Part shown: piece after piece, positions 7,457 to 62,405 of the stretch
Layout of the letters: every line of letters begins with the position of its first letter
Position numbering within the stretch: position 1 is the first letter of the stretch
DNA from: a virus
Lineage: Duplodnaviria; Heunggongvirae; Uroviricota; Caudoviricetes
DNA: 64,000 bases
IMG/VR virus record: IMGVR_UViG_2880372215_000004
Direction: 5' to 3' (one strand)
Notes under the pieces: generated by a model
Told to the model about the DNA's origin: nothing
The model's database searches: none
The model's input: the letters and a program-made list of their open reading frames with translations, nothing else
Made by a program: the position numbers and the translations under genes

Positions 7457-7743
7457 CTTATCTATCCCCTTAACGCCGGGTGGCGGAACTAACTGCTGCA
7501 CTGCAAAATTTGAATCCCGCCGTCATGTTCATACGCCTCGGGCTGGCTACTTAACCCCTGACCACTGCCTGGTAACTCGAAGTATTGCCCGGCGTTCTGT
7601 GGGGCGGGGTGGGTTGGTAGGTATATAATGTACTTTGTGTTCATCATTGTAAAGTACTTTAAGTACATTTTATGTATAAAAAAATGAGACGGGATAAAGT
7701 GAAGCACAAACCCGGAGGGGGACGCTACCGGATTTATGCTGGT

Positions 7744-8163
7744 TTAAGAGGCTTTTTGTTTTTTCTTTCGTGCTAACTCTTCGTAAATTGCATTGTACTT
7801 CTGTTTTTTCTCCTCAAGAGTTTTTAAAAGTTCATCTGTCTCACTGTCAGGGAGCTCGTCCAGAAGGTCAATGATGATTTTTTGTCTTGGATTTAACTCC
7901 TGATAGAAACGTATCTGTCCACTTTCTTCTGTATCCTCTCCCAAAAGATAGGTTGGTGTTGTTCCAATGAGTGTTGCTAATTCCCTTAATTTCTCTCGGC
8001 GAGGAATTGTTTCACCATTAAACCATTTGCTAACCGCTTTTGGTGTTAATTTCATTCGACGGGCAATTTCTGCCTGCCTTCCATGTTGTTCATAACCAGC
8101 GTTTTCACAGGCTAGCGCAAGCCTACTGGCGAACTCTTTACGCGCTTTATCTTCATGAACCAT
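7744..8163 (-). CDS. racR: prophage repressor RacR-like, 139 aa as listed (a longer non-ATG start is possible)
   Basis: ORF track; divergent from cro-like ydaS across a 79-bp control region. Confidence 0.75.
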   Translation of the reverse strand: MVHEDKARKEFASRLALACENAGYEQHGRQAEIARRMKLTPKAVSKWFNGETIPRREKLRELATLIGTTPTYLLGEDTEESGQIRFYQELNPRQKIIIDLLDELPDSETDELLKTLEEKKQKYNAIYEELARKKKQKAS

Positions 8164-8242
8164 AAGTTCAATGATATTCGCTCTTGAATGTACTGTCAGT
8201 TCTGTTATAGCATGTACTCAAAGTTCACATTGTGAGGGTGAT

Positions 8243-8497
8243 ATGAACCAGAAAACACTTGAAGATGTAATCAAAACTGTTCGCGTTTCTGTTGTGGCCG
8301 ACGTTTGTGGTGTCAGCCAAAGAGCAATCTACAAATGGATGGATAACGGTAAATTGCCTCGCACAGAATATACCGGCGAAACAAATTACGCTGAAAAAAT
8401 CGCTCATGCATCAAACGGATTATTTTCTGCCGATGCAATTTTAACTATTGGCAGAAATAAAACTACTACGAAAAAGCTGATGGGAGTTGATTCATGA
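8243..8497 (+). CDS. ydaS: Cro-like HTH protein YdaS, 84 aa from MNQKTLEDV
   Basis: ORF 8171..8497; internal ATG 8243; divergent from racR. Confidence 0.75.
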   Translation: MNQKTLEDVIKTVRVSVVADVCGVSQRAIYKWMDNGKLPRTEYTGETNYAEKIAHASNGLFSADAILTIGRNKTTTKKLMGVDS

Positions 8498-8916
8498 AAA
8501 TCAAGCATGAGCACATCGAATCAGTGTTGTTAGCCCTGGCAGCCGAAAAAGGGCAGGCGTGGGTCGCTAACGCAATTACTGAAGAATATCTGCGCCAGGG
8601 GGGCGGCGAATTGCCCCTGGTACCAGGCAAGGACTGGAACAATCAGCAGAATATCTATCATCGTTGGTTGAAAGGTGAAACGAATGCGCAAAGGGAAAAA
8701 ATTCAGAAACTGATCCCTGCGGTTCTGGCAATTCTTCCTCGCGAGCTGCGTCACCGACTCTGCATCTTCGATACCCTGGAACGCCGTGCATTACTGGCGG
8801 CACAGGATGCACTGAGTACGGCAATTGATGCGCATGATGATGCAGTCCAGGCCGTTTACCGTAAAGCACATTTCAGCGGCGGCGGTTCTCCTAGCGATTC
8901 TGTCGTAGTGCATTGA
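8494..8916 (+). CDS. ydaT: YdaT-like protein, 140 aa
   Basis: ORF track; start overlaps ydaS stop. Confidence 0.8.
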   Translation: MKIKHEHIESVLLALAAEKGQAWVANAITEEYLRQGGGELPLVPGKDWNNQQNIYHRWLKGETNAQREKIQKLIPAVLAILPRELRHRLCIFDTLERRALLAAQDALSTAIDAHDDAVQAVYRKAHFSGGGSPSDSVVVH

Positions 8917-8961
8917 TTGAAATTAATCGTACCGAACTGTTTTGTTCGGTATCAGTTAAAT

Positions 8962-9403
8962 GTAACGCTGCGAGCGTTACAAGGTGAAAACAAATGGCTT
9001 CAAACTGGATAAAGCTCGAAGTTATTACGCCGGATAAGCCGGAAATATTCAGGCTTGCTGAGATTCTGAATATTGATCCAGATGCCGCATTAGGGAAAGT
9101 CATTCGCTTCTGGGCATGGGCGGATCAACAAATGATAGACGGTAACGCAGAGTGTAACGCTCGCGGCGTTACAAAAAGTGCAATAGATCGCATCACTTTT
9201 ATGGCTGGTTTTGCTGATGCGTTAATTCAGGTTGGATGGCTGGTCGAAACTAATGGTGTGTTGTCGCTTCCTAACTTTGAGCGCCATAACGGGAAAAGCT
9301 CTAAAAAACGGGCGGTTACAAACGAGAGAGTAACAAAAATACGAGAACTGAAACGAAAAGGTAACGCTGCCAGCGTTACAAAAACGGATCAAAAAGCGTT
9401 ACC
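8962..9403. repeat. palindromic iteron-like sites GTAACGCT-N-AGCGTTAC (8962-8980, 9154-9172, 9361-9379) plus half-sites at 9313 and 9396
   Basis: Read directly in sequence; one site upstream of ydaU, the others inside it. Confidence 0.6.
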
Positions 9404-9782
9404 AGAGGAAGAGAAAGAGGAAGATATAAATACTTATCTCCCCCTAAATCCCCCTCGCCAAAAACGAGCGTCTAAAAAATTCGAACCGGAGGCTATCGAG
9501 CTGCCTGACTGGTTGCCGGAAACACTCTGGCATGAGTGGGTTCAGTTCAGGCAGGCATTGCGAAAACCGATTCGAACGGAGCAGGGCGCTAACGGGGCGA
9601 TACGGGAGCTGGAAAAATTCCGCCAGCAGGGTTTTTCACCTGAGCAGGTGATTCGACACAGCATCGCCAATGAATACCAGGGCTTGTTCGCGCCGAAAGG
9701 TGTTCGGCCAGAGACGTTGCTCCGACAGATTAACACCGTCTCGTTTCCGGACAGTGCGATCCCGCCAGGCTTCAGGGGGTAA
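8994..9782 (+). CDS. ydaU: replication-initiation-like protein YdaU, 262 aa
   Basis: ORF track; AAGGTGA Shine-Dalgarno; iterons inside gene; followed by DnaC-like ydaV. Confidence 0.75.
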   Translation: MASNWIKLEVITPDKPEIFRLAEILNIDPDAALGKVIRFWAWADQQMIDGNAECNARGVTKSAIDRITFMAGFADALIQVGWLVETNGVLSLPNFERHNGKSSKKRAVTNERVTKIRELKRKGNAASVTKTDQKALPEEEKEEDINTYLPLNPPRQKRASKKFEPEAIELPDWLPETLWHEWVQFRQALRKPIRTEQGANGAIRELEKFRQQGFSPEQVIRHSIANEYQGLFAPKGVRPETLLRQINTVSFPDSAIPPGFRG

Positions 9783-9788
9783 CAGACC

Positions 9789-10535
9789 ATGAAAAATATT
9801 GCGACAGGCGGCGTTCTGGAACGTATCCGCAGACTGGCCCCGCCACATGTAACCGCGCCATTCAGGACGGTGGCGGAGTGGCGCGAGTGGCAACTTGCAG
9901 AAGGCCAGAAACGTTGTGAGGAGATCAACCGTCAGAATCGTCAGTTGCGGGTGGAAAAAATCCTGAATCGCTCCGGCATACAGCCGTTGCACCGCAAATG
10001 CTCGTTTGCGAATTACCAGGTGCAGAACGACGGCCAGCGATACGCGTTGAGTCAGGCGAAATCTATCGCTGACGAACTGGTTACCGGATGCACAAATTTC
10101 GCGTTCAGCGGAAAACCTGGTACCGGAAAAAACCATCTGGCGGCGGCTATCGGGAATCGCCTGCTGAAAGATGGCCAGACAGTGATTGTGGTTACCGTGG
10201 CTGATGTTATGAGCGCCCTGCACGCCAGCTATGACGACGGGCAGTCAGGCGAAAAATTTTTGCGGGAACTGTGCGAAGTTGATCTGCTGGTTCTTGATGA
10301 AATTGGTATTCAGCGCGAGACGAAAAACGAGCAGGTGGTACTGCACCAGATTGTTGATCGCCGGACAGCGTCAATGCGCAGCGTGGGGATGCTGACAAAC
10401 CTGAACTATGAGGCCATGAAAACATTGCTCGGCGAGCGGATTATGGATCGCATGACCATGAACGGCGGGCGCTGGGTGAATTTTAACTGGGAGAGCTGGC
10501 GCCCGAATGTTGGTCAGCCAGGTATTGAGAAGTAA
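9789..10535 (+). CDS. ydaV: DnaC-like helicase loader YdaV, 248 aa, Walker [12 protein letters not shown]
   Basis: ORF track; P-loop and DnaC-like layout. Confidence 0.85.
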
Positions 10536-10557
10536 TTTTTACCGGGAGGAAATTTTA

Positions 10558-62162: not shown

Positions 62163-62405
62163 ATGAAAAAATCAGAAGTATTAGGCTATTTTGGCGGAGT
62201 TGTTAAAACAGCCGCCGCTCTAGGAACGTCAAAAACCACAGTCAGCATGTGGGGGGAAGACGTTCCGTGGAAATGGGCGTTGCTAATTCAGGCAGTCACT
62301 GCCGGGGCGCTCAAATATGAGTTACACATACCGACGGTTGTCATTCCCGATTCTGATCATAATCCGCCTTCTAACCAAGGGGGGATTCATGAAAATCAAG
62401 CATGA
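62163..62405 (+). CDS. Cro-like small HTH protein, 80 aa
   Basis: ORF 62115..62405; GGAG 6 nt before ATG 62163. Confidence 0.6.
   Translation: MKKSEVLGYFGGVVKTAAALGTSKTTVSMWGEDVPWKWALLIQAVTAGALKYELHIPTVVIPDSDHNPPSNQGGIHENQA

Follow-up and report, generated by a model that had tools for sequence, protein, structure and literature searches.

The 64,000-nucleotide stretch of DNA analyzed here (the window; Caudoviricetes record IMGVR_UViG_2880372215_000004) is a Rac-like prophage of Shiga-toxin-producing Escherichia coli (STEC). Comparison of sequences makes it probable that the interval of about 8960-9455 is the vegetative replication origin of this prophage, lying within the 5′ half of its own initiator gene, and that three 19-bp palindromes in this interval are the initiator-binding sites. 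A first-pass annotation, made from the window's letters alone, had proposed an origin inside the initiator gene at this place. That proposal is now supported by selection on the sites as DNA, their fixed placement within the gene, the 11-12 bp phasing of half-sites, the co-variation of the repeat word, the gene context, and a tract of low duplex stability. The arrangement appears to follow the logic of the lambda origin, built with an unrelated binding domain, and to represent a new family of initiator and iterons.

Palindromic sites in and before the initiator gene

A motif search of the whole window for GTAACGCT-N3-AGCGTTAC returned three palindromes, at 8962-8980, 9154-9172, and 9361-9379. 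With up to three mismatches allowed, these were the sole matches in the 64 kb (0.15 expected; three or more in 0 of 100 shuffles), and the coordinates given for them in the first-pass annotation are exact. The additional half-sites that it had mentioned are real as well, and its remark that the sites are mostly followed by AA(A) holds, the letters directly after sites 1, 2, and 3 being AA, AAAAA, and AAAAA. The features on which the argument rests are as follows.

8962-8980: site 1, GTAACGCTGCGAGCGTTAC, which is GTAACGCT-GCG-AGCGTTAC, a perfect palindrome
9154-9172: site 2, GTAACGCTCGCGGCGTTAC, which is GTAACGCT-CGC-GGCGTTAC, with one mismatch, in the coding region of the N-terminal domain
9361-9379: site 3, GTAACGCTGCCAGCGTTAC, which is GTAACGCT-GCC-AGCGTTAC, a perfect palindrome, in the interdomain linker (residues 123-129)
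9142-9148, plus strand: lone half-site GTAACGC, 12 bp 5′ of site 2 and in the same orientation as site 2
9395-9403, minus strand: terminal half-site AGCGTTACC, abutting the purine tract
9313-9319 and 9330-9334: weak everted pair of half-sites (CGGTTAC and GTAAC), of low confidence and not conserved in relatives
8994-9782, plus strand: initiator gene of 789 nt encoding 262 aa, with domains assigned by match and model (winged-helix-like, residues ~8-95; basic helix, 95-122; disordered linker, ~123-170; YdaU/DnaT-like, 170-262)
9404-9438, plus strand: candidate unwinding element, a 21-nt all-purine run AGAGGAAGAGAAAGAGGAAGA (9404-9424) followed by the A/T-rich TATAAATACTTATC
9440-9454, plus strand: C5-TAAAT-C5 tract, just beyond the A/T-rich stretch

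Site 1 lies between genes, with the initiator ATG (8994) 14 nt further on, and adjoins the AAGGTG ribosome-binding site; site 2 codes for a loop (residues 54-60). The distances between successive full sites are 192 and 207 bp. Taken together, the sites span -32 to +410 of the 789-nt gene; the earlier placement in the 5′ third of the gene is thus to be corrected to its first half, with site 1 outside the coding sequence. The heptamer GTAACGC occurs 17 times on the two strands of the window, compared with 5.4 expected, and 8 of the 17 copies fall inside the 441 bp of 8962-9402.

The lone half-site at 9142-9148 lies in a 12-bp tandem duplication at 9137-9160 (AGACGGTAACGC / AGAGTGTAACGC), which yields this half-site together with the residues NAEC in a loop of the N-terminal domain. 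Of the 78 distinct sequences in the codon alignment described below, 12 have the 12-bp NAEC insertion, which points to the gain of putative binding sites by duplication within a coding loop. Position 9146, within the same half-site, is polymorphic (C/T) in close relatives.

Constraint on the sites and the purine tract across loci

Using a profile of the N-terminal domain to search one-genome-per-species contigs, we collected 80 loci with 43-95% protein identity from Enterobacterales, Pseudomonas, Ralstonia, Achromobacter, Akkermansia, other Verrucomicrobia, and Planctomycetes. At no more than two mismatches, the palindrome of the window is found at the position of site 2 (+148/+160) in 65 of 80 loci and at the position of site 3 (+337 to +412) in 65 of 80, and both are present together in 60. 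The flanks of the loci gave 0 matches in 356,590 bp. The distance from site 2 to site 3 is most often 207 bp, within a range of 189-264 bp, and the helical-phase resultant is 0.4-0.56 in a set where many sequences are related. The upstream copy (-32 to -44) occurs at the same threshold in 9 of 80 loci, all of them enterobacterial.

Third-position information was then computed per codon in a codon alignment of the 78 distinct sequences. Degenerate codons reach 1.1-1.8 bits only at the palindrome codons and at the terminal GCG-TTA-CC half-site, whereas four-fold degenerate codons elsewhere carry 0-0.35 bit, including those of equally conserved Gly, Ala, and Val residues. The frozen codons are GGT (66/78), AAC (76/78), GCT (64/78), AGC (74/78), and GTT (69/78) at site 2, and AAC (74/76), GCT (54/76), AGC (63/76), and GTT (61/76) at site 3. 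At the terminal half-site, the Ala-Leu-Pro codons are kept as DNA across phyla, with GCG in 73 of 78 sequences, the rare leucine codon TTA in 69 of 76, and CCA or CCT. GCT, GTT, AGC, and TTA are retained even in GC-rich Pseudomonas. In 49 closely related variants from E. coli and Shigella, the 3-nt spacers differ but the arms of the palindromes hardly change. The frozen synonymous positions indicate that the palindromes are under selection as DNA rather than as codons.

The peptide N-A-x-S-V-T is itself conserved at both in-gene sites, as it would be if the protein required a repeated peptide, G-N-A-x-S-V-T-K, and the symmetry of the DNA were incidental. We give this explanation next to no credence. 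Peptide-driven repeats are ruled out by the frozen third positions of the codon test, and site 1 is noncoding. Moreover, both palindrome-encoded peptides fall in low-confidence parts of the AlphaFold2 model, in a loop (54-56) and in the linker (124-134), while the remaining N-terminal domain is confidently folded. In the locus L070, the peptide shifts along with the DNA word at both clusters, to C-A-P-S-A-T, and the purine tract downstream of the sites is conserved across three reading registers.

The half-sites show an iteron-like organization. Their density is 11.5 per kb within -60 to +460 of the initiator gene compared with 0.40 per kb in the flanks, and successive half-sites of the same orientation are spaced by 11/12, 22-24, or 33/34 bp only. 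Spacings of 11-12 bp or multiples thereof place the half-sites on one face of the helix. As the N-terminal domain diverges, the repeat word changes jointly at both clusters. It is GTTGCGC in L070, which also has two extra half-sites, and GTCACGC in L065; GTCCGC/GCGGAC is found in the phages epsilon15, Klebsiella BUCT711, Pseudomonas phiPSA1, Ralstonia RPZH6, and Cobetia Carin1, and GTAGAC/GTCTAC in Ralstonia phage Raharianne. Through these switches, the layout and the downstream CCAGAGAAGAGAAG tract persist. A small alignment showed no obvious residue correlated with the word that might set its specificity.

Another explanation takes the palindromes for hairpins in RNA or single-stranded DNA rather than double-stranded binding sites, serving for example in the stability or processing of mRNA, in antisense termination, or in primosome assembly. 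In its favor, the arms stay complementary through the switches of the repeat word. Each palindrome folds into a stem of 8-9 bp at -9 to -10 kcal/mol (z -2.2 to -4.6), and site 3 has a terminator-like score on the minus strand. The lone half-sites, of which the terminal GCGTTACC is the clearest, are in direct orientation with 11-12 bp phasing and are unable to pair, yet they are equally conserved, which argues against a role as hairpins only. In addition, site 2 and several homologues have uncompensated mismatches in their arms, an Rfam scan of 7600-10600 returned nothing relevant, and a dimeric protein would equally predict symmetric changes in the arms. We therefore regard the hairpin explanation as very improbable.

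Directly after the terminal half-site lies the candidate unwinding element (9404-9438), with a GC content of 0.33 and an AT skew of +0.5. The 30-bp segment at 9409-9438 is the least stable duplex of the gene, at -31.6 kcal/mol, where the mean is -40.6 (SD 3.7). The family consensus at the position of the purine tract is CC(A/T)(G/A)AGAAGAGAAGAGAAGA or GAGGAAGAGG. Scored by word counts, an (AGAAG)n or GAGGAAGAGG tract is found here in 46 of 83 loci, with a density of 12.9 per kb compared with 0.010 per kb elsewhere. The tract is identical in all repeat-word classes and is read in at least three amino-acid registers (P-E-K-R-R, P-R/K-E-E-K-R-R, and P-E-E-E-E). Since it is kept through three registers, it is, like the sites, conserved as DNA. 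Moreover, as it stays constant while the repeat word switches and the C-terminal domains vary, it may be a sequence-specific opening element rather than a generic A/T-rich region.

Beyond the A/T-rich stretch, the C5-TAAAT-C5 tract (9440-9454) may belong to the far border of the origin. The equivalent place in the E. coli K-12 Rac prophage (L001) has C7-TAAAT-C7-G5, C5+..C5+ is present in 9 of 79 distant loci, and similar tracts are found in BUCT711 and Raharianne. Paired C-tracts at this place were also observed in L001, L007, L013, L170, and L171, and in relatives a G-run often follows them; they are common to initiators with unrelated N-terminal domains.

The proximity of site 1 to the start codon and the ribosome-binding site is also what would be expected of an operator. 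In that case, the initiator or another regulator would repress or roadblock transcription or translation of ydaU-ydaV, and replication would start elsewhere. Palindromes of 19 bp are typical for dimeric repressors, and autoregulation of an initiator through its own repeats is common in iteron plasmids. Nevertheless, a function as operators only is unlikely in our view. The two in-gene sites are the conserved ones and the upstream site is the least conserved; the phased half-sites and the conserved low-stability purine and A/T tract are features of origins that an operator does not need; and the replication module showed no other repeat cluster or low-stability candidate origin.

The first-pass annotation had likewise offered operators as the alternative, and YdaT is the neighboring regulator for which this could be checked. 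Its published operator is TTGATT-N6-AATCAA (PMC9986795), to which the palindromes are unrelated. An exact copy, TTGATTCATGAAAATCAA, is located at 8487-8504, spanning the stop of the cro-like gene and the start of ydaT, as the YdaT operator likewise does in CP-933P (PMC9986795). The palindromes were accordingly rejected as YdaT operators, which further weakens the operator-only explanation. A secondary autoregulatory role for site 1, alongside an origin function of the whole cluster, is plausible.

The gene context also bears on whether the cluster might serve the prophage in some other way, for example in partition (as a centromere-like site), in packaging, or in recombination. Centromere-like and pac regions, too, contain short phased repeats in clusters. 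Here, however, what constantly accompanies the sites is an initiator-type protein whose gene immediately precedes one for a helicase or a helicase loader. No neighbor of the sites other than the N-terminal domain is constant: the upstream genes vary, and the gene after the initiator encodes, in the named phages and in 9 of the 10 distant loci, a lambda-P-like loader, a DnaC-like loader, or the DnaB helicase. Genes for ParA/ParB, a terminase, or a recombinase are not consistently found next to the sites, and the arrangement is shared by virulent podophages (Xanthomonas CP2 group). We consider such other functions extremely unlikely. Isolated phages also carry the module, vB_EcoS-666R9 with an identical N-terminal domain.

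The initiator protein, its proposed action, and related origins

The 262-aa initiator matches PHROG 2509, "replication initiation protein" (3e-88), and its PHROG matches include only generic "replication initiation" families. Its first 140 residues belong to no Pfam or NCBIfam family, and the N-terminal domain has no Pfam match at E ≤ 1, lambda O (Phage_rep_O) included; a profile of the domain likewise found no match among Protein Data Bank sequences. AlphaFold2 models this domain as a winged helix. An exhaustive protein search with the N-terminal domain gave 6615 clusters at 50% identity (E ≤ 1e-3) from many phyla, and residues 1-140 (8994-9413) thus appear to define a large uncatalogued domain family. 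Relatives are named variously in their source records, as "primosomal protein I", "replication protein O", or "pyocin large subunit".

The C-terminal domain (170-262) is weakly DnaT-like (2ru8, E = 2e-4), and many relatives also match the DnaT DNA-binding domain in their C-terminal part, which suggests binding of single-stranded DNA and hand-over to DnaB-DnaC. DnaT is the primosomal protein I of PriA restart; it lacks a domain for sequence-specific origin binding, such as is proposed for the initiator here, and its place of action is the stalled fork rather than an origin. Between the two domains, the linker (~123-170) carries site 3 and the purine tract. Residues 123-148, encoded by the DNA from site 3 through the terminal half-site to the purine and A/T tract, have a pLDDT below 50 and lie between the modelled domains.

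The gene is a mosaic. The name ydaU, given to it in the first-pass annotation, suits its C-terminal half, where similarity to K-12 ydaU is confined to 9409-9788 at 86% nucleotide identity; it does not suit the palindrome-bearing N-terminal half, which is unrelated to K-12 YdaU (DUF1376). The junction between the module of N-terminal domain and sites and the module of C-terminal domain and loader falls at 9404-9409, exactly at the purine tract and right after the last half-site. The same position emerges from the comparison with K-12 Rac and from that of close E. coli variants with one another. In L002, a second E. coli prophage, an N-terminal module of 68% identity is joined to a clear DnaT-type C-terminus and a lambda-P-like loader.

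In the mechanism we propose, the winged-helix-like N-terminal domain of the initiator would occupy each 19-bp palindrome in dimeric form, and the lone phased half-sites would each take up a single subunit. The proximal cluster, consisting of site 3 and the half-site at 9395-9403, would place the initiator beside 9404-9438, the segment that would melt. Looping or wrapping of the DNA may bring the distal sites, some 200 bp off, into this complex: site 2 and, in enterobacteria, also site 1. Site 1, lying at the ribosome-binding site, may also damp synthesis of the initiator. Finally, the DnaT/YdaU-like C-terminal domain would pass the opened DNA to host DnaB through the DnaC-like YdaV.

The layout parallels that of phage lambda, whose origin lies in the middle of gene O and consists of 19-bp imperfect inverted-repeat iterons and an AT-rich region (PMC7466680). 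As in lambda, and in Stx-phages and P22-type lambdoid phages, the candidate origin is placed within the initiator gene, between the portions for an origin-binding N-terminal and a loader-interacting C-terminal domain. Both have 19-bp inverted repeats and an A/T-rich, strand-asymmetric stretch after the last repeat, both are followed by a helicase-loader gene, and in both the N- and C-terminal modules are exchanged among phages (PMC7466680). There are also differences. The N-terminal domain here has no match to that of lambda O, and the repeat word is GTAACGC. The full sites here form two or three clusters separated by about 200 bp, compared with four to six tandem copies in lambda; we found no single tight tandem array beside the A/T-rich region, and only the half-sites are closely phased. 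Here, the A/T stretch comes after a conserved (AGAAG)n purine tract, and the loader is DnaC-like where that of lambda is P. Lastly, the word here is nearly unchanged across phyla, whereas lambdoid repeats differ between close relatives.

Iteron plasmid origins (RK2 TrfA, pPS10 RepA, and F RepE) pair a winged-helix initiator with repeated sites in helical phase and an unwinding element beside them; their inverted repeats can double as autoregulatory operators. The system described here may resemble them in its winged-helix-like initiator (as modelled), its phased repeats, and its adjacent candidate unwinding element. The RK2, pPS10, and F origins lie outside the rep coding sequence and use direct repeats of 17-22 bp, and we detected no sequence similarity.

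For the E. coli K-12 Rac prophage, the parts of the literature available to us report an active origin, oriJ (PMC3945230; reference list of PMC11014345). The window has the same slot as K-12 Rac, with the gene order of repressor, cro-like gene, ydaT, initiator, ydaV, and ydaW seen in L001, and homology, at 86% nucleotide identity or higher, covers the C-terminal half of the initiator as well as ydaV. Unlike the protein in the window, which has no DUF1376 match, K-12 YdaU has a DUF1376 N-terminal domain (3e-26), and its repeats are also different. The GTAACGC palindromes are absent from K-12, where ydaU instead carries TGTTCAAACA in three direct copies and one inverted copy (L001 2408-2475), just before an A-rich stretch and the C-tract pair. 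This set of repeats at L001 2408-2475 is a candidate for the core of oriJ.

It is possible, though we put it forward only tentatively, that the locus is one of a very large undescribed class of phage origins. In this class, the binding word and the (AGAAG)n tract would be embedded in the loops and linker of the initiator itself and hence remain near-unchanged from Enterobacteria to Planctomycetes. The tract would perhaps be a sequence-specific single-strand or triplex-forming opening element recognized by a conserved part of the initiator, and the distal cluster would perhaps serve DNA looping. Our literature search, which included the literal sequences, turned up no account of the repeat word, the tract, or the domain family; subscription papers were mostly outside its reach, and an earlier description is possible. 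The records of the phages vB_EcoS-666R9, TL-2011b, epsilon15, and CP2 contain no origin annotation.

The analysis provides a concrete candidate origin, with its sites, probable opening region, and binding domain, for a common prophage type of STEC and Shigella. By homology, it does likewise for very many phages and prophages that have neither a Pfam model for the initiator domain nor an annotated origin. Conservation of the sites across phyla offers a clean system for studying coding and cis-acting constraints on shared nucleotides, and the natural word switches (GTAACGC, GTCCGC, GTAGAC, and GTTGCGC) amount to a ready-made specificity-swap experiment. The pairing of the palindrome with a CCAGAGAAGAG tract might serve as a simple origin marker in metagenomic phage contigs.

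Gene neighborhood and minor features

All 15 of the best-matching genome records, O157:H7 and O111 strains among them, share positions 8400-10600 at 100% identity. The genes around the initiator gene, in order, are as follows.

7744-8163, minus strand: cI-like repressor, first in the gene order
between the cI-like repressor and ydaT: cro-like gene
8494-8916: YdaT/CII-like gene, 5′ of the initiator gene
9789-10535, plus strand: DnaC-like helicase loader (YdaV), 7 nt 3′ of the initiator gene
3′ of the DnaC-like loader: DUF1627 gene

The position of the initiator gene directly upstream of a DnaC-like loader, as first annotated, is borne out by the matches of the adjoining gene to Pfam IstB_IS21 (2e-20) and Bac_DnaA (2e-8) and to PHROG 50, "DnaC-like helicase loader" (1e-85). 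In epsilon15-type phages (epsilon15, L164 342-1511) and in Vibrio phages (1.211 records), a gene for a C-5 cytosine DNA methyltransferase lies directly 5′ of the initiator gene and overlaps it.

We found no DnaA boxes (TTWTNCACA) near the region, and a sigma-70 promoter scan of 8700-9900 returned none. Between ydaT and site 1, a hairpin with a perfect 8-bp stem, TACCGAAC-N6-GTTCGGTA, is present at 8930-8951; it is terminator-like on the minus strand, with the tail CGATTAATTT. Its location is reminiscent of the terminator of lambda's oop antisense RNA.

A further YdaT-like site, TTGATTGAAATTAATCGT, weak and with two mismatches, is located at 8913-8930, directly past the stop codon of ydaT and some 426 bp away from the strong one. 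YdaT tetramers are reportedly able to hold two operators; about five such matches per window are expected by chance, and this one is therefore probably not meaningful. Near the end of the window, GGGATTCATGAAAATCAA at 62382-62399 has 15 consecutive bases in common with the YdaT operator at 8487-8504, which suggests a second junction of the ydaS/ydaT type there, from another lambdoid prophage or a remnant.
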